Source: Escherichia coli (GTDB lineage Bacteria > Pseudomonadota > Gammaproteobacteria > Enterobacterales > Enterobacteriaceae). Taken from it: a stretch of 60,030 bases of DNA. Shown here piece by piece: positions 97 through 43,620 of the stretch. A program made the translations under genes and the position numbers. The notes below the pieces were generated by a model. That model did no database searches. It was not told the origin of the DNA and saw only the letters and a program-made list of their open reading frames with translations. The DNA lies in NCBI RefSeq assembly GCF_003334785.1, contig NZ_QOWV01000021.1; one strand, 5' to 3'. How positions within the stretch are numbered: the stretch's first letter is position 1; each line of letters begins with the position of its first letter.

Positions 97-249
97 CTAC
101 TTCTTCGGTTCGTAAGCGAGAACAGCCTTAAACTCAATATTACGTTCCTTCACCGTAAACTCACACAGCGAGTCTCCGACCAGAAGCGTAAATCCCAGCA
201 CCGTTAAACACAGCACTATGACTGCCGCAAGGGCATATTTCGTCAGCAT
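97..249 (-). CDS. hokE: Hok-family type I toxin (50 aa small membrane peptide)
   Basis: C-terminal 50 codons of track ORF 97..348 translate to [50 protein letters not shown], a typical Hok/Gef peptide with one TM helix and conserved Cys; ATG confirmed at 247-249 (complement). Confidence 0.8.
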
Positions 250-692
250 GTTTATATTGCCTCCATGCGAAGAAGGGACTACCATCCAAATTGTTCGGGT
301 TTGGAGTGGCAGCCCCAGGGTTGATAGAAATATCTCCTGGGGCTTCATCTTTCCAGACCTCAGAGTAAACCTGAAACCGGAAAGCTTCAGGCACCCGCCG
401 TTATCTTACCCTTCCTCAACAAAATAGCTGTTTATTTATACAGTGAGTCCTGTTTCGGACTTCTCACTCCTCATTTAATCAACTGAAGCTGAACCCGTTT
501 TTTTCTGCATGACTCAATCGTCAAAATTCTTCGCCACCAGTCAGCACTGCCATAACTTGTCACATTGCAAAAGTAGCCAAATTGCTTCAGGCACCATCAG
601 TTCACCATCACCAAAAAAAAGAAACATTCCAGAACTTCCGCATCTCGCCCAGCCGCTCCGACTTCTATACTGAATAGAAAACGCCAACATAA

Positions 693-14781: not shown

Positions 14782-17019
14782 GTGGACTGGCTTCTTGATG
14801 TTTTTGCTACCTGGCTCTACGGCTTAAAAGTAATCGCGATAACGTTAGCGGTCATCATGTTCATCAGCGGGCTGGACGATTTTTTTATTGATGTCGTCTA
14901 CTGGGTACGCCGCATTAAACGCAAGTTGAGTGTTTATCGCCGCTACCCGCGAATGAGTTACCGCGAACTGTATAAACCAGATGAAAAACCGTTAGCGATT
15001 ATGGTTCCGGCGTGGAATGAAACGGGCGTCATCGGCAATATGGCCGAGCTGGCGGCGACCACGCTCGACTACGAAAACTATCATATCTTTGTTGGCACCT
15101 ACCCCAACGCCCCCGATACTCAGCGTGATGTTGACGAAGTGTGCGCTCGCTTCCCGAATGTGCATAAGGTAGTCTGCGCGCGTCCTGGCCCCACCAGCAA
15201 AGCCGACTGTCTGAACAACGTGCTGGACGCCATCACCCAATTTGAGCGTAGCGCCAATTTCGCTTTTGCTGGTTTTATTCTGCATGACGCCGAAGATGTG
15301 ATTTCACCGATGGAATTGCGTCTGTTCAACTATCTGGTCGAGCGTAAAGATCTGATTCAGATCCCGGTGTATCCGTTCGAACGCGAATGGACGCACTTCA
15401 CCAGCATGACTTACATTGATGAGTTTTCAGAGCTGCATGGCAAAGATGTTCCGGTGCGTGAAGCCCTCGCCGGACAAGTGCCCAGCGCAGGCGTCGGCAC
15501 CTGTTTCAGCCGCCGCGCCGTGACCGCACTGTTAGCTGACGGTGACGGTATTGCTTTCGACGTGCAGAGTCTTACTGAAGATTACGACATTGGCTTCCGC
15601 CTGAAAGAAAAAGGTATGACGGAAATTTTTGTCCGTTTTCCGGTGGTGGACGAAGCCAAAGAACGCGAGCAGCGTAAATTTTTACAGCACGCGCGGACAT
15701 CAAACATGATCTGCGTGCGCGAATATTTCCCCGATACCTTTTCGACTGCGGTTCGACAAAAATCCCGCTGGATCATCGGCATTGTTTTCCAAGGCTTTAA
15801 AACCCATAAATGGACCTCCAGCCTGACGCTGAACTACTTTCTCTGGCGCGACCGCAAAGGGGCAATCAGTAACTTTGTCAGCTTCCTCGCGATGCTGGTG
15901 ATGATCCAGCTTTTGCTGTTGCTGGCGTATGAAAGTTTGTGGCCCGATGCCTGGCATTTCCTTTCTATTTTCAGCGGCAGCGCATGGTTAATGACCCTGC
16001 TGTGGCTAAACTTTGGTTTGATGGTTAACCGCATCGTGCAGCGGGTGATTTTCGTTACTGGCTACTACGGCCTGACGCAGGGGCTGCTTTCCGTCCTGCG
16101 TCTTTTCTGGGGCAACCTGATTAACTTCATGGCCAACTGGCGCGCGCTAAAACAGGTACTTCAACACGGCGATCCACGTCGCGTGGCGTGGGATAAAACA
16201 ACGCATGACTTCCCCAGCGTGACTGGCGATACCCGCTCGTTGCGCCCGTTAGGTCAAATTCTGCTGGAAAATCAGGTCATCACTGAAGAACAACTCGATA
16301 CAGCACTGCGTAATCGCGTCGAAGGTCTACGCCTGGGCGGTTCAATGCTGATGCAGGGGCTGATTAGCGCCGAGCAGCTGGCACAGGCGCTGGCAGAGCA
16401 AAACGGCGTGGCGTGGGAATCCATCGATGCCTGGCAGATCCCTTCCTCGCTGATTGCCGAAATGCCGGCCTCCGTGGCGCTGCATTATGCGGTACTGCCG
16501 CTGCGTCTGGAAAATGACGAGTTAATTGTCGGCAGTGAAGATGGTATTGACCCGGTTTCGCTGGCGGCCCTGACGCGTAAAGTCGGACGCAAAGTGCGTT
16601 ACGTCATTGTTCTGCGGGGACAAATTGTCACAGGGTTACGTCACTGGTATGCACGCCGACGCGGTCACGATCCGCGGGCAATGTTGTACAATGCGGTTCA
16701 GCATCAGTGGCTCACGGAACAGCAGGCCGGTGAAATCTGGCGGCAATATGTGCCGCATCAGTTCCTGTTCGCCGAAATACTGACCACGCTCGGTCATATT
16801 AATCGTTCAGCAATTAACGTGTTGTTATTGCGCCATGAACGCAGTTCTCTGCCGCTCGGCAAGTTTTTGGTCACCGAAGGCGTTATCAGCCAGGAAACGT
16901 TGGATCGCGTCCTGACAATTCAACGCGAATTACAAGTTTCGATGCAATCACTATTACTCAAAGCAGGTTTAAACACAGAACAGGTTGCGCAACTGGAGTC
17001 CGAAAATGAAGGAGAATAA
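14782..17019 (+). CDS. nfrB: inner-membrane family-2 glycosyltransferase with C-terminal MshEN-like repeats (phage N4 adsorption protein B)
   Basis: 745 aa, GTG start; N-terminal TM, glycosyltransferase core (DAEDV motif), two C-terminal GSPII-E-N/MshEN-like segments. Confidence 0.9.
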   Translation: MDWLLDVFATWLYGLKVIAITLAVIMFISGLDDFFIDVVYWVRRIKRKLSVYRRYPRMSYRELYKPDEKPLAIMVPAWNETGVIGNMAELAATTLDYENYHIFVGTYPNAPDTQRDVDEVCARFPNVHKVVCARPGPTSKADCLNNVLDAITQFERSANFAFAGFILHDAEDVISPMELRLFNYLVERKDLIQIPVYPFEREWTHFTSMTYIDEFSELHGKDVPVREALAGQVPSAGVGTCFSRRAVTALLADGDGIAFDVQSLTEDYDIGFRLKEKGMTEIFVRFPVVDEAKEREQRKFLQHARTSNMICVREYFPDTFSTAVRQKSRWIIGIVFQGFKTHKWTSSLTLNYFLWRDRKGAISNFVSFLAMLVMIQLLLLLAYESLWPDAWHFLSIFSGSAWLMTLLWLNFGLMVNRIVQRVIFVTGYYGLTQGLLSVLRLFWGNLINFMANWRALKQVLQHGDPRRVAWDKTTHDFPSVTGDTRSLRPLGQILLENQVITEEQLDTALRNRVEGLRLGGSMLMQGLISAEQLAQALAEQNGVAWESIDAWQIPSSLIAEMPASVALHYAVLPLRLENDELIVGSEDGIDPVSLAALTRKVGRKVRYVIVLRGQIVTGLRHWYARRRGHDPRAMLYNAVQHQWLTEQQAGEIWRQYVPHQFLFAEILTTLGHINRSAINVLLLRHERSSLPLGKFLVTEGVISQETLDRVLTIQRELQVSMQSLLLKAGLNTEQVAQLESENEGE

Positions 17020-33573: not shown

Positions 33574-34083
33574 ATGTCTTCCCGCAATAATCCGGCGCGT
33601 GTCGCCATCGTGATGGGGTCCAAAAGCGACTGGGCTACCATGCAGTTCGCCGCCGAAATCTTCGAAATCCTGAATGTCCCGCACCACGTTGAAGTGGTTT
33701 CTGCTCACCGCACCCCCGATAAACTGTTCAGCTTCGCCGAAAGCGCCGAAGAGAACGGTTATCAGGTGATTATTGCGGGCGCAGGCGGCGCAGCGCACCT
33801 GCCAGGCATGATTGCCGCCAAAACGCTGGTGCCGGTGCTGGGCGTACCAGTACAGAGCGCCGCACTGAGCGGTGTCGATAGCCTCTACTCAATCGTACAA
33901 ATGCCGCGCGGCATTCCGGTGGGTACGCTGGCGATTGGTAAAGCTGGCGCGGCAAACGCGGCATTACTGGCAGCACAAATTCTTGCGACTCATGATAAAG
34001 AACTGCACCAACGTCTGAATGACTGGCGCAAAGCACAAACTGATGAAGTGCTGGAAAACCCGGACCCGCGAGGTGCGGCATGA
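33574..34083 (+). CDS. purE: N5-carboxyaminoimidazole ribonucleotide mutase
   Basis: Track ORF trimmed to ATG 33574 ([20 protein letters not shown]..., 169 aa). Confidence 0.93.
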
Positions 34084-35147
34084 AACAGGTTTGCGTCCTC
34101 GGTAACGGGCAGTTAGGCCGTATGCTGCGTCAGGCAGGCGAACCGTTAGGCATTGCTGTCTGGCCGGTCGGGCTGGACGCTGAACCGGCGGCGGTGCCTT
34201 TTCAACAAAGCGTGATTACCGCTGAGATCGAACGTTGGCCGGAAACCGCATTAACCCGCGAGCTGGCACGCCATCCGGCCTTTGTGAACCGCGATGTGTT
34301 CCCGATTATTGCCGACCGTCTGACTCAGAAGCAGCTTTTCGATAAGCTCCACCTGCCGACCGCGCCGTGGCAGTTACTTGCCGATCGCAGCGAGTGGCCT
34401 GCGGTGTTTGATCGTTTAGGTGAACTGGCGATTGTTAAGCGTCGCACTGGTGGCTATGACGGACGCGGTCAATGGCGTTTACGCGCCGATGAAACCGAAC
34501 AGTTACCGGCTGAATGCTACGGCGAATGTATTGTCGAGCAGGGCATAAACTTCTCTGGTGAAGTGTCGCTGGTTGGCGCGCGCGGCTTTGATGGCAGCAC
34601 CGTGTTTTATCCGCTGACGCATAACCTGCATCAGGACGGTATTTTGCGCACCAGCGTCGCTTTTCCGCAGGCCAACGCACAGCAGCAGGCGCAAGCCGAA
34701 GAGATGCTGTCGGCGATTATGCAGGAGCTGGGCTATGTGGGCGTGATGGCGATGGAGTGTTTTGTCACCCCGCAAGGTCTGCTGATCAACGAACTGGCTC
34801 CGCGTGTGCATAACAGTGGTCACTGGACGCAAAACGGTGCCAGCATCAGCCAGTTTGAGCTGCATCTGCGGGCGATTACCGATCTGCCGTTACCGCAACC
34901 AGTAGTGAATAATCCGTCGGTGATGATCAATCTGATTGGTAGCGATGTGAATTATGACTGGCTGAAATTGCCGCTGGTGCATCTGCACTGGTACGACAAA
35001 GAAGTCCGTCCGGGGCGTAAAGTGGGGCATCTGAATTTGACCGACAGCGACACATCGCGTCTGACTGCGACGCTGGAAGCCTTAATCCCGCTGCTGCCGC
35101 CGGAATATGCCAGCGGCGTGATTTGGGCGCAGAGTAAGTTCGGTTAA
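34080..35147 (+). CDS. purK: N5-carboxyaminoimidazole ribonucleotide synthetase (ATP-grasp)
   Basis: 355 aa; start overlaps purE stop (ATGA). Confidence 0.93.
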
Positions 35148-35159
35148 CTGGTGCTCTAT

Positions 35160-35325
<166 letters not shown>

Positions 35326-35341
35326 TGTCTAATGCCTACGA

Positions 35342-36235
35342 CTACAGCGAAATACAGGTCCCCGCTTCGCCCGCCAGCGTCTCTTCAATTCGCGATAACG
35401 CCCCAATCCACGCGGGTTTACCACGGCTTCTGACATAACCACTCACCGCCGTTACCTTCGGCCCCATCGAACCATCGGCTTTGGCAAATGGCGCTAACTC
35501 ATCCGGTGTGGCATGGCGAATGGCGCGTTGCTGCGGCGTTCCCCAGTTTTCATATACCGCATCAGCATCAGTGAGGATCACCAGCCCATCGGCGTTAATC
35601 TGCTCAGCGAGCAACGCAGCAGCGAGATCTTTATCAATCACCGCTTCACTCCCTGCCCCATCTTCCGTCACAGGCACACCGCCGCCGCCACTGCAAATCA
35701 CCACATGCCCCTCTTTGAGCAACAACTCGATGGCTTCGCTGTCGAGAATTTTACGCGGTTGCGGAGACGCCACCACCCGGCGCAAATATTTACCATCACG
35801 TTTCATCTGCCAGCCGTAAGCCGCTTCCAGTGCCTCTTGTTCTTCTGGCTGATAAACCGGACCAATAAATTTCTCTGGCTGCAAAAACGCCGGATCATCA
35901 GGCGAAACCTCAATGCGCGTCAGCACCGTCGTCACGGGCGGCATCTGCGGCTGTGCGCTCAAACTCTGTGCCAGCATATAGCCAATCATCCCCTGGCTTT
36001 CCGCCACCAGCACATCCAGCGGATACGGTTCTACCTCTTTCCACGCCAGATTCTGCAATGCCAGCAGCCCCACCTGCGGCCCGTTGCCGTGAACAATCGC
36101 CAGCCGATAAGAACGGGCCAGGCGCGCCAGCGCGGGTACAGCACTGGCGATATTGCGATATTGATTTTCTGCCGTCAGCGCCTCGCCGCGCTGGAGTAAG
36201 GCGTTGCCCCCAAGAGCTACAACCAGTGTTTTCAT
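35342..36235 (-). CDS. ybcF: carbamate kinase-like protein (ArcC family)
   Basis: 297 aa amino-acid-kinase fold ([18 protein letters not shown]...), typical carbamate kinase N-terminus. Confidence 0.88.
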
Positions 36236-37047
36236 GGTGTTCCTTGTAATAATTGTTGACCAAGCCAGAACCCCAGCAGCGTATCTGCCCCTGACGTGTG
36301 CCCCAGCGCCAGCAGCGAATCAATCGCAACAGCGGTACGTTTCGGGCAACTCAGAGCATGAACAAAGTGCAGGAGTGGCGAGGCGAAATATCCTTGCGCG
36401 GCGTAGCGTAAATAACTGACGCTCACCGCTGTGGTAACGAGTTGAAGATTGTCGGAACAGGCAAAAAACTGGCGACCAGAGCGCGCATCTAAAGCGCCAT
36501 AATACCAGGCCGCCAGCAGCATTCCGCTCAGCGTATCATCATGACTTGGCGTTAATCCGGGTCCTTTACCCAGCCAGTGCCGCCAGTCGGTCTTAACGCC
36601 ATTGAGCGCGGCCTGAAAACAGTGACGAAACTGGCGTAATTCAGCGGGCAGCGGATCGCTTGCCGCCATCGCCAGTGGCCCGAAAAGCCCGGTTTCCTCC
36701 GCGCGTTGCATCCATGCAGCTGCAAGCGGTTGAGGATGCGCAGGCGGCGTAATACGCAGCAAACAATAACGCTGTGGCTGTTTAACCGTGAAACGCCCGA
36801 GGCGAATCCCTTGAGCCACAACCTGCGGTCGTTCATTGCCGCATAATCCACCGCATAACGCATCGAATTGCGCGCGGCGAAGCACCCATCCTCCGGGGCC
36901 GAAACCACTACCCTTACGATGCAGCGTTAACAGTTCGCCGCTTTCCGTCATCAGGTTAATCGCCCGTCGCCACACTCCCGCTAACCGCCAGGACTGGCGA
37001 TAATTCGGTGCGCTACTACTGGCAAGCAGAGGATGGATGATCGTCAT
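36232..37047 (-). CDS. ylbF: conserved protein YlbF (DUF2877)
   Basis: Track ORF trimmed to ATG 37047 ([18 protein letters not shown]..., 271 aa); stop overlaps ybcF start. Confidence 0.8.
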
Positions 37048-37057
37048 TGTGCGTTCC

Positions 37058-38317
37058 TCAACCAATCCCCATGCTTTCAGCCAGTGCTTCCAGCGCCTGT
37101 TCAAAACACGCCAGCGGTGCCCGCACGGTGCCTGCGCCAATCTGCCCGATCCCCGCCTCTTTATGGGCGATACCGGTATTGATGAGTGGCGTAATACCGG
37201 TTTCTACCACGCGACGAATGTCCAGTCCCAGGCAGGCGCCCTGAAAATCCCAGCTTGGGATCTGCAACTGCATATTGCGTTCAAGGTAAATTTCCGCCAT
37301 CTCTTCAGATACCGCCCTGGCCGCTTCCATGCCACCCGCACCGACAAAGCGCGTTACGCCAGGCGCTGCGATCATTGCCGCACCTCCGATACCAAAGGTT
37401 TCGGTAATCGCGCTATCGCCCATATCCGGGTTCGCCTGCTCCTGCGAGAAGCCGGTGAAAAACAGACCTTGCGGAGTGTTTACAGGCGCAGTAAACCAGC
37501 GTTCACCCAGCCCGCTTACCCGAATCCCGAACATATTGCCGTTGCGGGTCATAGCCGTAACGATGCTGCCTGCGCGGATCATCGCGCCAGCATCCATCGC
37601 CGCCTTGCAGTAGGCCATCGCGAGGTTGAGGAAGAACTGATCGGTCACGCTGAGGAAATCCATCACTTCCGCAATGTGCTGTTTATCATGATCGAGGCGA
37701 GCAATTTGTGGGGCCAGCGTACGCATTAACAGTGCTGAGGAAGCAATATTGCGTTGATGGAACTCATCGCCCATGGTAATGCCCTGCGCCATCATCGCCG
37801 TGAGATCGATACCGTGCTCCATGCGCCCCAGCGCCGCGCTTAATACTGGCATTAACACATCGCGCATCCAGCGATGGCGAGTCAGGACATCTTCGCCATA
37901 AGCGCCAAAACGCATCACTTTGCCGATACCTTCGTTGAGGTTGCAGTACGCCCGGTTGCCGTCGGTCACGTTCTCGACCACCAGCATCGGCATACTGGCA
38001 GAAGTAATACCGCCCATTGGCCCGACGGCATTCACATGGTGACAAGGAATGAAGTTCACTTCCCCCTGCTCCAGTATTGCCAGCGCCTGCGCTTCATCTT
38101 TCGCCCAACCTTCGAACAGACATGCGCCCACGCACGCCCCTTTCATAGGTCCGGTCATCTCCTGCCAGCGCATTGGCGGCCCGGCGTGAAGCAGTGTTTT
38201 GCCCTGGTTTAGTTCGCTGATAAGTGAAGAAGCCGGTTGCACATCCAGCCAGTGTGGACGAGCGCGACGAATTTGTTCGATAACCGCAGCATTGGCTTGC
38301 GCCACTGATGTAAACAT
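37058..38317 (-). CDS. ylbE: conserved protein YlbE (DUF1116)
   Basis: 419 aa intact ORF. Confidence 0.82.
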
Positions 38318-38326
38318 GGGAACCCC

Positions 38327-39994
38327 TTATTGCAAACGTTCTAATAAACGAGCCAGTTTTTTATTGCCGCCGGCGACTGGCGACCATTGGTAATGCACAA
38401 CCGGTTTGCTGGCGCTTTGTAGCTCCAGCGCAAAGCTGCGTAATCCGATGTTAATCACGGCGACGTTTTCCAGTAATGACGGTGTGTGTTGCTGAGTGGC
38501 AGGCGAAAGCGGACGAATCAGTGCCGCCGCCAGCAAGGTGGCTTCCGGCAGCGAACTCACTACCGCGATCCCCGCATCTTCCAGCGTGGCGATTTGCTGC
38601 GAGCGGCATTGCGGGTCACGTTCAGTGCCTGTCACCGTGGCAATGGCATACAGTGGTTGATTGTCTGAACGCGCAGCACAGGCTTTTTGCCAGGCGCTTA
38701 CCAGCGAGGCGGCAGGATCGGCGGTCGCACCGAAGCCAATCACGACATCAAGCAGCAATACGCGCACTTGCGGTTTAGCGCCGAGATCGGCAATTAACTG
38801 ATTGCGTAAGGCTGGGTCGATCATCGGATGGGGACGCCCGACGGTGTAGAAATCATCGCCGAGGTCAATAATCTGGTGACCATCGGCGTCGAGCATCATG
38901 CCGTGATGATGGGTATCGTCGGCTTCCACGCCAAGGTGTCCAGCAAGTAATCCCGCCGCTTCGGCAGCCAGGGTACCGCCGGTATACAAACCGCAAATAA
39001 ATCCGCTGCTGGCAGGCGTTATCGCGTTACGTCGCGCCGTAACGCGTGAAAGCAGGCAAGCCAGGCGTGCGGCCTCATCCAGCGAGGAGGCAAACCAGAC
39101 ATTCTCGTCGCGGGCCACCGCCGGGGTATAACCTAAAAACAGCGCCACCGTCGGTTTGCCGGTTGCTTTCATGGCATTAACAATTTTCAGACGCACAGCT
39201 TCGGCAGGCGGTTTTGAAACAAATGCCAGCACTTCGCTTTTCTCGTCTGCACTGAGCATTTCCAGCGCCGTCAGCGCACTGATGCCGCCCACTTCACGGC
39301 TGAGGTCGCGCCCGCCAAGGCCAATCGCGTGAGTAATTCCCTCCCCTGCCAGCGCAATCTGCGAACACAGTTCCTGAATCCCGGTACCGGAAGCGCCAAT
39401 GACGCCAATATTGCCTTCCGGCATCACGTTAGCAAAAGCCAGCGGCGTGCCGGCAATCATCGACGTACCGCAGTCCGGCCCCATCACCAGCAAGCCTTTT
39501 TCCCGCGCGCGGCTTTTAAGTTGGATTTCATCTTCCAGCGTGACGTTATCGGAGAACATCATCACGTTGAGGTTGCGATCCAGCGCCTGGTTCGCCAGCT
39601 CCGCCGCATACTCGCCAGCCACTGAAATCAGCGCCAGACTGGCGTCGGGTAATTTCTGACAGGCACTGTCCCAGCGACGCACCTGCGTCAACGCCTGGCT
39701 GCTGCCTGACCCCTGCGCCAGTTGTTTTAGCGCCTCTTCAAGCTGCTGCATAATCGCCTGCGCGATCCCCGCATCCGCCGCTTCGCTACGAATTGCCACG
39801 CAAATATCGTTCGGCGTGGCGTTATTAAAATCGTCATGCCAGAAACCTGTGGTATCTAATAACGCTTTATTGGCGGGCGTACCCATCATTACGGAAACAT
39901 CATCAACATTTTCTGATTCGCTGAGTTTTCGTGAAATAATCATTAAACTGACCGAATCCTGAAAACACCCTTTTTTAATAAAGGCGTGGATCAT
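38327..39994 (-). CDS. fdrA: FdrA, succinyl-CoA synthetase alpha-like CoA-binding protein
   Basis: 555 aa; CoA-binding/ligase-like domain. Confidence 0.85.
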   Translation of the reverse strand: MIHAFIKKGCFQDSVSLMIISRKLSESENVDDVSVMMGTPANKALLDTTGFWHDDFNNATPNDICVAIRSEAADAGIAQAIMQQLEEALKQLAQGSGSSQALTQVRRWDSACQKLPDASLALISVAGEYAAELANQALDRNLNVMMFSDNVTLEDEIQLKSRAREKGLLVMGPDCGTSMIAGTPLAFANVMPEGNIGVIGASGTGIQELCSQIALAGEGITHAIGLGGRDLSREVGGISALTALEMLSADEKSEVLAFVSKPPAEAVRLKIVNAMKATGKPTVALFLGYTPAVARDENVWFASSLDEAARLACLLSRVTARRNAITPASSGFICGLYTGGTLAAEAAGLLAGHLGVEADDTHHHGMMLDADGHQIIDLGDDFYTVGRPHPMIDPALRNQLIADLGAKPQVRVLLLDVVIGFGATADPAASLVSAWQKACAARSDNQPLYAIATVTGTERDPQCRSQQIATLEDAGIAVVSSLPEATLLAAALIRPLSPATQQHTPSLLENVAVINIGLRSFALELQSASKPVVHYQWSPVAGGNKKLARLLERLQ

Positions 39995-40310
39995 AACAAC
40001 TCCTTAAAAATTGCACCCATGGCAATTGCACGAGCAGTGTTAATGTGGCGATTACGGTATCGATGACAACGAGTAAATAAGGTGATGAATATCACACAGG
40101 AATTATTAACAAAAGAATTCAAATAACCGCCAGGCTATTACTCATTATTTTTTAATAAGCGTGGTTGTTTTAAAAATCAGGTTAAAAGTGAGCGGATTAT
40201 CAAATAAATTCTAACTATATTTTCTTGCCTGTCTGGATCACATAATCCAGATATTTTCCCTGTATGTTAATTGCAGTCATGCTTCACACCGTCGTTAAAA
40301 AGGAAGACAG

Positions 40311-41360
40311 ATGAAAATCAGTCGGGAAACACTCCACCAGCTAATTGAGAATAAACTCTGCCAGGCTGGGTTAAAACGTGAGCACGCTGCAACCGTGGCT
40401 GAAGTATTGGTTTACGCCGATGCCAGAGGGATCCACTCTCATGGCGCGGTGCGCGTGGAATACTACGCGGAACGCATTTCAAAAGGCGGCACCAACCGCG
40501 AACCGGAGTTTCGTCTTGAGGAAACCGGGCCGTGCTCGGCAATTTTACATGCCGACAATGCCGCCGGACAGGTCGCGGCGAAAATGGGTATGGAACATGC
40601 CATCAAAACCGCCCAGCAAAATGGCGTTGCGGTGGTCGGTATCAGCCGGATGGGTCACAGCGGCGCAATCTCTTATTTTGTGCAGCAGGCAGCCCGCGCC
40701 GGATTCATTGGCATTTCGATGTGCCAGTCCGATCCAATGGTGGTGCCGTTTGGCGGCGCGGAAATTTACTACGGTACTAACCCCCTGGCCTTTGCCGCGC
40801 CGGGAGAAGGCGACGAGATCCTTACCTTTGATATGGCGACTACCGTACAGGCATGGGGAAAAGTGCTCGACGCCCGCTCGCGTAATATGTCTATCCCGGA
40901 TACCTGGGCGGTCGATAAAAACGGTGTACCAACAACCGATCCGTTCGCGGTACATGCTCTGCTCCCCGCCGCCGGGCCAAAAGGGTATGGCCTGATGATG
41001 ATGATTGACGTCCTCTCAGGCGTCTTACTCGGCTTACCGTTCGGGCGACAGGTTAGTTCGATGTATGACGATTTACACGCAGGGCGTAATTTGGGGCAAT
41101 TACATATAGTTATTAATCCGAACTTTTTCTCCTCCAGCGAATTATTCCGTCAACATCTTAGCCAGACCATGCGCGAATTAAATGCCATTACCCCCGCGCC
41201 CGGTTTTAATCAGGTTTATTATCCCGGACAGGATCAGGATATTAAACAACGCAAAGCCGCCGTCGAAGGCATCGAAATTGTTGATGATATTTACCAGTAT
41301 TTAATTTCCGACGCGCTTTATAACACGTCATACGAAACGAAAAATCCCTTTGCGCAATAA
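40311..41360 (+). CDS. allD: ureidoglycolate dehydrogenase
   Basis: 349 aa Ldh2-family oxidoreductase. Confidence 0.9.
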   Translation: MKISRETLHQLIENKLCQAGLKREHAATVAEVLVYADARGIHSHGAVRVEYYAERISKGGTNREPEFRLEETGPCSAILHADNAAGQVAAKMGMEHAIKTAQQNGVAVVGISRMGHSGAISYFVQQAARAGFIGISMCQSDPMVVPFGGAEIYYGTNPLAFAAPGEGDEILTFDMATTVQAWGKVLDARSRNMSIPDTWAVDKNGVPTTDPFAVHALLPAAGPKGYGLMMMIDVLSGVLLGLPFGRQVSSMYDDLHAGRNLGQLHIVINPNFFSSSELFRQHLSQTMRELNAITPAPGFNQVYYPGQDQDIKQRKAAVEGIEIVDDIYQYLISDALYNTSYETKNPFAQ

Positions 41361-41381
41361 TTATTGAGACAGGACTTTCTT

Positions 41382-42617
41382 ATGATTACACATTTCCGTC
41401 AAGCTATAGAAGAAACGCTGCCCTGGCTTTCCTCTTTTGGCGCTGACCCAGCGGGTGGGATGACCCGTTTACTTTATTCGCCGGAATGGCTGGAAACCCA
41501 GCAGCAATTTAAAAAAAGAATGGCAGCAAGCGGGCTGGAAACACGTTTCGATGAAGTGGGGAATTTATACGGTCGCCTGAATGGCACCGAATATCCACAG
41601 GAAGTGGTTCTGAGCGGTTCGCATATCGATACCGTGGTTAACGGCGGTAACCTTGACGGGCAATTCGGCGCGCTGGCGGCGTGGCTGGCAATTGACTGGC
41701 TGAAAACGCAATACGGCGCGCCGCTACGTACGGTCGAAGTGGTGGCGATGGCAGAAGAAGAAGGCAGCCGCTTCCCGTATGTCTTCTGGGGCAGTAAAAA
41801 TATTTTTGGGCTGGCGAATCCTGACGACGTGCGGAATATCTGTGATGCCAAAGGAAATAGTTTTGTCGATGCGATGAAGGCTTGCGGATTTACTCTTCCG
41901 AACGCCCCACTAACTCCGCGTCAGGATATTAAAGCCTTTGTTGAACTGCATATTGAACAGGGCTGTGTGCTGGAAAGTAATGGGCAATCAATTGGCGTGG
42001 TGAATGCAATTGTCGGGCAGCGTCGTTATACGGTAACGCTGAACGGCGAATCAAACCATGCAGGCACCACGCCGATGGGTTATCGTCGTGATACAGTTTA
42101 CGCTTTCAGTCGCATTTGCCATCAGTCGGTCGAAAAAGCGAAAAGGATGGGCGATCCGCTGGTTCTGACCTTTGGCAAAGTAGAGCCGCGCCCGAATACG
42201 GTAAATGTGGTGCCGGGTAAAACCACGTTCACCATTGATTGTCGTCATACCGACGCTGCCGTGCTGCGCGATTTCACCCAACAGTTAGAAAACGACATGC
42301 GGGCGATTTGCGATGAAATGGACATTGGTATTGATATCGATTTATGGATGGACGAAGAACCCGTGCCGATGAATAAGGAGCTGGTCGCCACCCTGACAGA
42401 ATTGTGTGAAAGAGAAAAACTGAATTACCGGGTGATGCACAGTGGTGCCGGGCACGACGCGCAAATTTTCGCGCCTCGCGTACCAACCTGCATGATTTTT
42501 ATCCCCAGCATCAACGGGATCAGCCATAACCCGGCGGAACGCACCAATATTACCGACCTTGCCGAAGGGGTCAAAACGTTGGCACTCATGCTTTATCAAC
42601 TTGCCTGGCAGAAATAA
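41382..42617 (+). CDS. allC: allantoate amidohydrolase (M20 peptidase family)
   Basis: Track ORF trimmed to ATG 41382 (MITHFRQAIEETLPWLSSFG..., 411 aa). Confidence 0.9.
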   Translation: MITHFRQAIEETLPWLSSFGADPAGGMTRLLYSPEWLETQQQFKKRMAASGLETRFDEVGNLYGRLNGTEYPQEVVLSGSHIDTVVNGGNLDGQFGALAAWLAIDWLKTQYGAPLRTVEVVAMAEEEGSRFPYVFWGSKNIFGLANPDDVRNICDAKGNSFVDAMKACGFTLPNAPLTPRQDIKAFVELHIEQGCVLESNGQSIGVVNAIVGQRRYTVTLNGESNHAGTTPMGYRRDTVYAFSRICHQSVEKAKRMGDPLVLTFGKVEPRPNTVNVVPGKTTFTIDCRHTDAAVLRDFTQQLENDMRAICDEMDIGIDIDLWMDEEPVPMNKELVATLTELCEREKLNYRVMHSGAGHDAQIFAPRVPTCMIFIPSINGISHNPAERTNITDLAEGVKTLALMLYQLAWQK

Positions 42618-42627
42618 GGAGTCATAA

Positions 42628-43413
42628 ATGGGATATTTAAATAACGTCACCGGTTACCGCGAAGATTTACTGGCTAACCGTGCGATTGTTAAACACGGTA
42701 ATTTCGCACTGTTAACCCCGGATGGTCTGGTAAAAAATATTATTCCGGGCTTTGAAAATTGTGACGCGACAATCCTCTCCACGCCAAAGCTGGGTGCCTC
42801 TTTTGTTGATTATCTGGTCACACTGCATCAAAACGGTGGCAACCAACAGGGCTTCGGTGGCGAAGGCATTGAAACGTTCCTGTATGTGATCTCTGGAAAT
42901 ATCACTGCCAAAGCCGAAGGCAAAACATTTGCCTTAAGCGAAGGTGGCTATCTTTATTGCCCGCCAGGCTCCTTAATGACGTTTGTTAACGCCCAGGCCG
43001 AAGACAGCCAAATCTTTTTATATAAGCGCCGCTATGTTCCGGTAGAAGGCTATGCACCGTGGCTGGTTTCTGGCAATGCCAGCGAACTGGAACGCATTCA
43101 TTATGAAGGCATGGACGATGTTATTCTGCTGGATTTTCTGCCCAAAGAGTTAGGTTTTGATATGAACATGCATATCCTCTCTTTTGCACCAGGTGCCAGC
43201 CACGGTTATATCGAAACACACGTTCAGGAACACGGTGCCTATATTCTTTCCGGTCAGGGGGTTTATAACCTCGACAATAACTGGATCCCGGTGAAAAAAG
43301 GCGATTACATCTTTATGGGCGCTTATTCTTTACAGGCTGGTTATGGTGTAGGGCGTGGTGAAGCGTTCAGCTATATTTACTCGAAAGATTGTAACCGCGA
43401 CGTAGAGATTTAA
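42628..43413 (+). CDS. allE: (S)-ureidoglycine aminohydrolase, bicupin
   Basis: 261 aa cupin-type protein (also known as ylbA). Confidence 0.88.
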   Translation: MGYLNNVTGYREDLLANRAIVKHGNFALLTPDGLVKNIIPGFENCDATILSTPKLGASFVDYLVTLHQNGGNQQGFGGEGIETFLYVISGNITAKAEGKTFALSEGGYLYCPPGSLMTFVNAQAEDSQIFLYKRRYVPVEGYAPWLVSGNASELERIHYEGMDDVILLDFLPKELGFDMNMHILSFAPGASHGYIETHVQEHGAYILSGQGVYNLDNNWIPVKKGDYIFMGAYSLQAGYGVGRGEAFSYIYSKDCNRDVEI

Positions 43414-43455
43414 GTCATACCACTCGCCTGATTATTTTTAGCTATGTTGGATTTT

Positions 43456-43620
43456 GCCACGGTTTATACCGTGGCTTTTTTTGTAACATTGCCTGATGCG
43501 CTTCGCTTATCAGGCCTACATGATCTCTGCAATATATAGAATTTGCGCAATTTTCAGGAAGGATATGGTACTCATGCCGCATCCGGCATGAGTACTGCAC
43601 TCTTATGCGATATAAATCGC
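43456..43620. repeat. terminator hairpin followed by REP-like palindromic elements between convergent allE and glxK
   Basis: ccacggtttataccgtgg + T-run; then gcctgatgcg...cttatcaggcctac and catgccgcatccggcatg palindromes. Confidence 0.7.

Follow-up and report, generated by a model that had tools for sequence, protein, structure and literature searches.

[quoted passage not shown] The enzyme activities, the requirement for each gene, the co-transcription, and the regulators have been shown experimentally for the orthologues of strain K-12. The function of allFGHK is already known from experimental work published between 2022 and 2025, and the locus brings no new knowledge of E. coli. The earlier note expressed the belief that this assignment was a recent proposal; it has in fact been demonstrated (PMC9843812, PMC11326118, and PMC12535856). 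Oxamic transcarbamylase remained an activity with no assigned gene between the 1960s and 2024, and its identification closed the anaerobic allantoin pathway, from which urease-negative gut bacteria gain all four nitrogens of allantoin and one ATP. Annotation lags behind this literature, since many RefSeq records keep the names "acyl-CoA synthetase FdrA," "DUF1116," and "DUF2877."

Organization and conservation of the locus

The listing of open reading frames (ORFs) in the window revealed four minus-strand ORFs at positions 35342-36235 (297 residues), 36232-37140 (302 residues from a TTG codon), 37058-38317 (419 residues), and 38327-39994 (555 residues). These ORFs are flanked by purK (34080-35147, plus strand), which converges with the first, and by allD (40311-41360, plus strand), which diverges from the last. 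In the order of transcription, they correspond to allF (fdrA; 38327-39994), allG (ylbE; 37058-38317), and allH (ylbF; 36232-37047), encoding the three subunits of oxamic transcarbamylase, and to allK (ybcF; 35342-36235), encoding a catabolic carbamate kinase. All four reading frames are intact, including that of AllG, the most conserved of the three subunits. For allH, the 302-residue version starting at the TTG codon at 37140 was dropped: it overlaps allG by 83 nucleotides, whereas the annotated ATG at 37047, which gives a 271-residue protein, is free of this overlap and is preceded by a GAGGAA ribosome-binding site. The gene identities independently agree with the RefSeq annotation of identical strains, and the ORFs and this annotation also delineate the allD-allC-allE operon (40311-43413, plus strand). 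The allS-to-allD gene set is complete within the window. The cluster of co-directional, tightly spaced or overlapping genes on the strand opposite to allDCE that had been described in the earlier note was thus recovered with the same coordinates and layout.

The four genes are contiguous, as expected for an operon, with gaps of 9 nucleotides between allF and allG and of 10 nucleotides between allG and allH, and with a 4-nucleotide overlap (ATGA) in which the start codon of allK lies on the stop codon of allH. In K-12, ybcF was found by reverse transcription-PCR to be co-transcribed with fdrA-ylbE-ylbF (PMC9843812). This result, the short gaps, and the ATGA overlap support a single allFGHK transcript, whose promoter lies in the AT-rich region between allD and allF.

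At least 80% of the 35000-40400 region was present in 5,408 of the 5,426 complete E. coli genomes, indicating that the locus belongs to the core chromosome of the species. This distribution, together with the recurrence of the allF-allG-allH order in distant bacteria, shows that the layout is not a chance pattern. The window and K-12 (b0518, b4572, b0520, and b0521) share the locus, gene order, spacing, and neighbors. The differences are allelic only, comprising three intergenic single-nucleotide polymorphisms and 10, 3, 4, and 2 substitutions in AllF, AllG, AllH, and AllK, respectively, which are 98 to 99% identical to the K-12 proteins. Outside E. coli, Rahnella displays the same glxK, allE-allC-allD, allF-allG-allH-allK layout. 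Four further loci, two of them in Rahnella, carry allF, allG, and allH side by side, with a carbamate kinase gene nearby in all but one of them. This gene adjoins allH in Rahnella and in locus L009, and in locus L010 it is located 1.6 kb upstream of allF, past a gene encoding a major facilitator superfamily (MFS) transporter.

Control region and regulation

The divergent control region (39995-40310) separates the start of allD from that of allF, on the opposite strand, by 316 bp and has a G+C content of 35%, versus 57% for the allFGHK operon. It is identical to that of K-12 at 313 of the 316 positions, the differences being located at -230, -169, and -135 relative to the ATG of allF. In K-12, anaerobic induction of the operon with allantoin requires AllS and ArcA, and the two regulators bind between allD and allF (Kim & Kim 2025, PMC12535856). 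Expression reached 4,007 Miller units under anaerobiosis with allantoin, versus 15 to 19 under aerobic conditions, and was reduced to about 100 in mutants lacking allS or arcA; binding was deduced from the shift of allD-allF fragments in electrophoretic mobility shift assays (EMSA) performed with crude lysates (PMC12535856). These data bear out the co-regulation with the all genes on which the interpretation of the cluster depended. The promoter accordingly needs both AllS, whose expression level conveys an allantoin/nitrogen signal, and ArcA, conveying anaerobiosis.

Mapping the published coordinates (PMC12535856) onto the window located the fragment shifted by AllS (-203 to -144) at 40138-40197 and the fragment shifted by phosphorylated ArcA (-142 to -83) at 40077-40136, both on the minus strand. 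Each is identical to K-12 at 59 of 60 positions. The single difference in the AllS fragment (-169, A to C) falls outside the dyad TTTTAA-N8-TTAAAA, which is intact at 40168-40187; should the PRODORIC matrix have been built from this same region shared by allD and allF, the AllS score of 1.0 could be circular. The difference in the ArcA fragment (-135, T to C) adjoins a predicted ArcA motif centered at -134, and a TGTTAA half-site is present at 40106-40111. The sequences bound by AllS and ArcA therefore appear to be present in the control region of the window. The earlier note had suggested a search for an AllR or AllS site in this region; published EMSA support the AllS site, whereas the published scan detected no AllR site and deletion of allR left the expression of allF'-'lacZ unchanged (PMC12535856).

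Scanning positions 35100 to 40400 yielded three promoter-like matches, all on the minus strand of the control region, the same number as obtained with shuffled sequence. A gSELEX peak at K-12 position 547,672, between fdrA and ylbF, is reported in the table of NtrC targets of an RpoN/NtrC study (PMC8743547), and there is a sigma-54 prediction for the operon in PMC9843812. A sigma-54 promoter in or upstream of the operon was considered and rejected, as the motif TGGCACG-N4-TTGCW had 109 matches across the window versus 117 expected by chance, and the control region contained no match with fewer than three mismatches.

At the other end of the operon, no canonical intrinsic terminator was found after allK in the convergent allK-purK gap (35148-35341), which is identical to that of K-12. 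The gap is filled with palindromic repeats, including a 53-nucleotide direct repeat family, and the corresponding RNA has a folding energy of -87.5 kcal/mol (z = -5.4). In our reading, the repeats appear to be of the REP/BIME type, and they probably either mark the 3' ends of the two transcripts or stabilize these transcripts. They account for the 24 to 49 BLAST places per genome.

Oxamic transcarbamylase and carbamate kinase

The purified AllF-AllG-AllH complex catalyzes the reversible conversion of oxamate and carbamoyl phosphate to oxalurate and Pi, i.e., the reaction of the long-orphan oxamic transcarbamylase (Kim & Kim 2024, PMC11326118). In the same study, 17.7 mM oxamate accumulated as an end product from 19.5 mM allantoin. 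Formation of oxamate was abolished in the allF, allG, and triple mutants and reduced to 1.2 mM in the allH mutant, full complementation required all three genes, and allGH without allF restored only 16% of the wild-type level of oxamate. The oxamate carbamoyltransferase function that the earlier note had tentatively attributed to fdrA, ylbE, and ylbF is therefore established for the K-12 orthologues by gene deletion and by purification of the complex. All of this biochemistry was obtained with K-12/MC4100 proteins, and the near-identity of the window proteins to those of K-12 suggests that they would form the same three-subunit enzyme.

The carbamate kinase homolog noticed initially was also confirmed. 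AllK matched the NCBIfam carbamate kinase equivalog NF006926 over residues 1 to 296 of 297 (621.1 bits for a cut-off of 416) and the arcC equivalog TIGR00746 (426.7 bits for a cut-off of 358.25), in agreement with kinetics identifying K-12 YbcF/AllK as a catabolic carbamate kinase (Kim & Kim 2022, PMC9843812). The allDCE products catalyze the preceding steps, from allantoate to ureidoglycolate and oxalurate (PMC12535856, Fig. 1 legend). In this pathway, AllD oxidizes ureidoglycolate to oxalurate, AllF-AllG-AllH cleaves oxalurate with phosphate to form carbamoyl phosphate and oxamate, which is excreted, and AllK transfers the phosphate of carbamoyl phosphate to ADP, yielding ATP, NH3, and CO2. 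The initial description of an "oxamate-to-ATP" branch was thus right as to the branch but loosely worded, since oxamate is the excreted end product and ATP originates from the carbamoyl phosphate derived from oxalurate.

The kinetics of AllFGH were determined in the synthetic direction at pH 9, and the KM was 1.3 mM for carbamoyl phosphate and as high as 36.9 mM for oxamate (PMC11326118). The latter value could suggest that the true substrate is a different compound of the ureido or N-carbamoyl type, cleavage of oxalurate being a side activity of a general carbamoyl-harvesting module that happens to lie beside the all genes. Homologues of AllFGH indeed occur away from allantoin genes: in L009 and L010 their only companions are an MFS transporter and a carbamate kinase, and the Anaerolineae locus L003 lacks a carbamate kinase and combines them with a cyclase, a molybdenum hydroxylase, and an amidohydrolase. 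This explanation is nonetheless very unlikely for E. coli, in which the conversion of allantoin to oxamate ceases or almost ceases when any one of the three genes is deleted, expression depends upon allantoin and AllS, and the control region is shared with allD, whose product makes oxalurate; synteny with allDCE is also retained in Rahnella. A different substrate may apply to the distant homologues but not to this locus, for which oxalurate remains the substrate that we retain.

Subunit families and catalytic mechanism

AllF belongs to the FdrA subfamily (NCBIfam NF004760; 1043.6 bits for a cut-off of 433) and contains the Pfam domains CoA_binding (PF02629; E = 2e-11) and Ligase_CoA (PF00549; E = 6.3e-35). 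The structure of the K-12 protein is available (PDB 3DMY). AllG and AllH matched PF06545 (E = 1.9e-97) and PF11392 (E = 2.1e-29), which Pfam entitles "AllG" and "AllH" and describes as oxamate carbamoyltransferase subunits. A single solved structure, that of an uncharacterized homologue, matched AllG, and none matched AllH.

The domains of AllF and its kinship to the alpha subunit of succinyl-CoA synthetase (SCS) underlie the older view, defended by CanOE in 2012 (PMC3364942) and perpetuated by the RefSeq name, that FdrA is a genuine acyl-CoA synthetase, such as an oxamate:CoA ligase activating oxamate for breakdown, and that YlbE and/or YlbF alone form the transcarbamylase. This view has already been largely refuted and is highly improbable. 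Deletion of allF alone abolishes oxamate formation, allGH poorly replaces the complete set, the purified three-subunit enzyme is active without CoA or nucleotide (PMC11326118), and oxamate piles up instead of being broken down. The sequence of AllF also argues against a ligase of the SCS type. Residues 118 to 290 of AllF aligned with residues 66 to 238 of SucD (21% identity; E = 6e-09), the alignment ending before His246. The phosphohistidine loop needed by these ligases (MGHAGA in SucD) is absent from AllF, the alignments with SucD and five SCS alpha chains all stopping just short of it, and residues 291 to 352 of AllF contain no histidine. No ATP-grasp domain was detected in AllF, AllG, or AllH, AllF did not align significantly with SucC, and the operon offers no ATP-grasp partner. 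A role of fdrA in cell division or in the quality control of membrane proteins has a negligible probability; its only arguments are the historical name of the gene and a database annotation that PMC11326118 quotes. A phenotype of multicopy suppression is indirect, fdrA is required to form oxamate and lies within a metabolic operon induced anaerobically by allantoin, Pfam detected no domain related to FtsH function in AllF, and the papers examined report no single-copy fdrA phenotype in FtsH-dependent processes independent of allantoin metabolism.

Retaining AllF as a subunit of the transcarbamylase, we infer that AllFGH would operate without the CoA and phosphohistidine chemistry of its SCS relatives, because the histidine loop has been lost in AllF and the published assay contained only oxamate, carbamoyl phosphate, MgCl2, and Tris (PMC11326118), Mg2+ being the only addition needed. 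The published gain-of-function substitution D296Y falls in the AllF segment standing in place of this loop. Judging from conservation (49% identity between the E. coli and Anaerolineae proteins), AllG probably provides a large part of the active site. AllH displays two invariant Gly/Asp-rich loops, whose conservation suggests that they could bind phosphate or Mg2+. Taken together, these features raise the possibility, which we consider doubtful at present, that AllFGH represents a mechanistically new class of phosphorolytic carbamoyltransferases. In this class, the active site would be mainly provided by AllG, which has no characterized structural relative, AllF would be a scaffold derived from SCS, AllH would supply its two loops, and homologues with no carbamate kinase or all genes linked to them, such as those of L003, would cleave other ureido or N-carbamoyl compounds.

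Comparison with known systems

AllF shares its CoA_binding and Ligase_CoA domains with the alpha subunit of SCS and with NDP-forming acyl-CoA synthetases but differs from SCS by the features described above. The resemblance between the reactions is by analogy only, both enzymes cleaving an activated acyl or carbamoyl group with phosphate to form an acyl phosphate. Classical transcarbamylases, namely, aspartate (ATCase; PyrB) and ornithine (OTCase; ArgI/ArgF) transcarbamylases and YgeW, catalyze the same type of reaction, in which a carbamoyl group passes between carbamoyl phosphate and an acceptor nitrogen. They are homotrimers of a single catalytic chain acting on an amine, whereas AllFGH needs three different subunits and acts on the amide nitrogen of oxamate; neither Pfam nor NCBIfam detected the OTCase/ATCase fold (OTCace_N and OTCace) in AllF, AllG, or AllH. 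Catabolic OTCase is also coupled to carbamate kinase for ATP production (PMC11326118). The arginine deiminase pathway (ArcA-ArcB-ArcC) follows the same energetic logic under anaerobiosis, a catabolic transcarbamylase producing carbamoyl phosphate that carbamate kinase converts to ATP, NH3, and CO2. In that pathway, the donor is citrulline and the transcarbamylase is unrelated in sequence to AllFGH, whereas the donor for allFGHK is oxalurate originating from purine breakdown and, unlike in the arginine deiminase pathway, control is exerted by AllS and the response regulator ArcA.

Organization of the allFGHK locus

BLAST comparisons placed the window in the E. coli chromosome, positions 35000 to 40400 matching several sequenced strains at 100% identity and at least 80% of this segment being present in 5408 of the 5426 complete E. 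coli genomes. Strain 300709 was colinear with positions 15000 to 60030 (12 mismatches in 45 kb). Therefore, the window contains the full allantoin regulon, from allS (54453 to 55379) to allD. The ORF list and the RefSeq annotation of identical strains confirmed the four-gene cluster that the earlier note had described between purK (34080 to 35147) and allD (40311 to 41360), both on the plus strand. The minus-strand genes are allF/fdrA (38327 to 39994; 555 residues), allG/ylbE (37058 to 38317; 419 residues), allH/ylbF (36232 to 37047; 271 residues), and allK/ybcF (35342 to 36235; 297 residues), with intergenic gaps of 9 and 10 nt and an ATGA overlap shared by allH and allK. A 302-residue reading of allH from a TTG codon, proposed by the ORF scan, was rejected: it extends upstream into allG, and a GAGGAA ribosome-binding site precedes the annotated ATG at 37047. 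The scan start of allC overshoots in the same way (TTG at 41364 and 417 residues, versus 41382 and 411 residues in RefSeq; stretch 41364 to 41381).

NCBIfam assigned AllF to the FdrA subfamily (1043.6 bits versus a cut-off of 433) and AllK to the carbamate kinase equivalog (621.1 bits versus a cut-off of 416). Pfam detected CoA_binding and Ligase_CoA domains in AllF, and the copy used describes the families of AllG (PF06545) and AllH (PF11392) as oxamate carbamoyltransferase subunits AllG and AllH, respectively. AllF, AllG, AllH, and AllK differ from their K-12 MG1655 counterparts by 10, 3, 4, and 2 residues, respectively, and the ylbE reading frame is intact. RefSeq names for matches to 35342 to 39994 are often still "acyl-CoA synthetase FdrA," "DUF1116 domain-containing protein," and "DUF2877 domain-containing protein"; the name "oxamate carbamoyltransferase subunit AllH family protein" is already used in some few records. 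Annotation of these genes is inconsistent and lags behind the assignment made in 2024.

Function of the operon

The genes, the reaction, and the regulation of allFGHK have all been published. These publications cover every check and refuting condition listed in the earlier note; its interpretation is supported, and the finding is already known. In 2012, the CanOE study listed ylbF, fdrA, and ylbE as candidate genes of the orphan enzyme oxamate carbamoyltransferase, with ybcF as the carbamate kinase gene, and expressed doubt about fdrA owing to its CoA-ligase domain (PMC3364942). A laboratory-evolved FdrA D296Y variant tied fdrA to oxamate production in 2021 (PMC8550087). In 2022, RT-PCR detected all the two-, three-, and four-gene transcripts of fdrA-ylbE-ylbF-ybcF, and purified YbcF was found to be a catabolic carbamate kinase, in support of the role that the earlier note had assigned to this protein (PMC9843812). 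The oxamate carbamoyltransferase activity proposed there for fdrA, ylbE, and ylbF is likewise supported, both by gene deletions and by the purified three-subunit enzyme (PMC11326118). Oxamate was not formed from allantoin following single deletion of allF or allG or deletion of the three genes, deletion of allH lowered its concentration to 1.2 mM versus 17.7 mM, and wild-type production was regained only with allF, allG, and allH together (PMC11326118). The purified AllF-AllG-AllH complex was active, forming oxalurate from oxamate and carbamoyl phosphate in a mix containing only the substrates, MgCl2, and Tris, the KM for carbamoyl phosphate being 1.3 mM and that for oxamate 36.9 mM (PMC11326118).

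The Ligase_CoA domain raises the possibility that AllF is an acyl-CoA synthetase. Residues 118 to 290 of AllF align to residues 66 to 238 of SucD, the alpha subunit of succinyl-CoA synthetase, and all the alignments of AllF to SucD-type chains end just short of the phosphohistidine loop. The phosphohistidine of E. coli SucD is His246; residues 291 to 352 of AllF contain no histidine. Pfam analysis of AllF, AllG, and AllH and alignment of AllF with SucC identified no ATP-grasp partner in the operon, and the published assay works without CoA or a nucleotide (PMC11326118). The missing phosphohistidine loop, the dispensability of CoA and nucleotides, and the lack of an ATP-grasp partner thus indicate that AllF does not function as an acyl-CoA synthetase. 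The D296Y substitution, which is reported to speed up oxamate production (PMC8550087), maps to the short AllF segment standing in for the SucD phosphohistidine loop, suggesting that this region of AllF is near the chemistry. Codon 296 (39107 to 39109) encodes the wild-type Asp in the window. We favor, and infer from these comparisons, an active site that would be centered on AllG, with input from the two invariant Gly/Asp-rich loops of AllH, G160 to D171 and G249 to D255, and from the remodeled AllF segment. Residues H93, K133, D184, E185, and H385 are among those invariant in AllG. No paper on the structure or mechanism of AllFGH was present in the literature searched.

Control region and flanking features

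Co-regulation of the cluster with the all genes, as anticipated by the earlier note, was borne out by a 2025 study in which expression of an allF'-'lacZ fusion required allantoin and allS (PMC12535856). The fusion produced about 4,000 Miller units under anaerobic conditions with allantoin, 15 to 19 under aerobic conditions, and about 100 following deletion of allS or arcA (PMC12535856). The earlier note had suggested a search for an AllR or AllS site in the allD-allF region. AllS shifted the fragment extending from -203 to -144 relative to the allF ATG, and deletion of allR left expression of the fusion unchanged; phosphorylated ArcA shifted the -142 to -83 fragment (PMC12535856). Mapped from that paper, the AllS and ArcA fragments correspond to 40138 to 40197 and 40077 to 40136, respectively, each with 59 of 60 positions identical to K-12. 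The former retains an intact TTTTAA-N8-TTAAAA dyad (40168 to 40187), outside which lies its single substitution (A to C at -169; 40163). The latter contains a TGTTAA half-site (40106 to 40111), and its substitution (T to C at -135; 40129) adjoins the predicted ArcA motif centered at -134. The third difference from K-12 in this 316-bp region is at 40224. Since AllS also activates allD (Rintoul et al., as cited in PMC12535856), which shares the region, the score of 1.0 published for AllS may be circular. The G+C content of the region is 35% versus 57% for the operon, and the three sigma-70-like sequences detected by the promoter scan all lie within it, a number no higher than in shuffled sequence. 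In a gSELEX study, the NtrC target table includes a peak at K-12 position 547,672, placed between fdrA and ylbF (PMC8743547) and corresponding to about 39002. No sigma-54 -24/-12 motif above chance was detected in or near the operon.

Downstream of the operon, the 194-bp convergent gap between allK and purK (35148 to 35341) is identical to K-12 and holds a 53-nt repeat family, which we read as REP/BIME-like palindromes. These palindromic repeats account for the 24 to 49 BLAST places per E. coli genome. As RNA, the gap is predicted to adopt a very stable fold (-87.5 kcal/mol; z, -5.4), and no canonical intrinsic terminator was found in it.

Rfam matches above the gathering score were obtained for the STnc480 (43420 to 43486; 87.6 bits) and ES036/CssrF (43512 to 43554; 40.2 bits) sRNA families on the minus strand. 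Both are located in the allE-glxK convergent gap, directly downstream of glxK and on its strand, and could be sRNAs from the glxK 3' untranslated region within the allantoin regulon. At the start of the window, a sok antitoxin RNA match (241 to 396, minus strand; 84.4 bits) suggests a hok/sok-type toxin-antitoxin locus.

Conservation of the AllFGH module

The allF-allG-allH genes form a conserved three-gene module, the AllH family comprising 3533 representatives (50% clustering; E value of ≤0.001). The 2024 paper stated that Klebsiella pneumoniae has neither oxamic transcarbamylase nor carbamate kinase genes (PMC11326118). Surveys of this species report that a minority of strains, 10.9% in one equine collection, carry fdrA, ylbE, ylbF, and arcC in their allantoin island (PMC10808340). 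Homologues of AllG and AllH are also present in K. quasipneumoniae, K. pasteurii, and K. spallanzanii. AllG and AllH, neighboring subunits of one enzyme (36232 to 38317), differ strongly in evolutionary rate: AllG of E. coli is 79% identical to that of Rahnella and 49% identical to that of Anaerolineae, versus about 38 to 41% and about 30%, respectively, for AllH.

Two Rahnella loci (L004 and L005) display the layout found here, with glxK, allE-allC-allD, and allF-allG-allH-allK. In locus L012, AllFGH is accompanied by allC/allE-like genes and by a LysR regulator, and a carbamate kinase gene is absent from the 12.6 kb examined, which reach one contig end. Two loci contain no other all genes. 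L009 (2740 to 8774) consists of an MFS transporter, AllFGH, and a carbamate kinase; L010 (1464 to 8765) consists of a carbamate kinase on the opposite strand, an MFS transporter, AllFGH, and a LysR regulator. These stand-alone modules suggest direct uptake of oxalurate or of a related ureido acid. Some distant AllFGH members may act on other substrates. In the Anaerolineae locus (L003; 654 to 8852), which lacks a carbamate kinase gene, genes for a cyclase, a xanthine-dehydrogenase-like molybdenum hydroxylase, and an amidohydrolase separate allF-allG from allH, and a xanthine/uracil permease gene is close by; this locus may encode an AllFGH-type enzyme of a different heterocycle degradation pathway.
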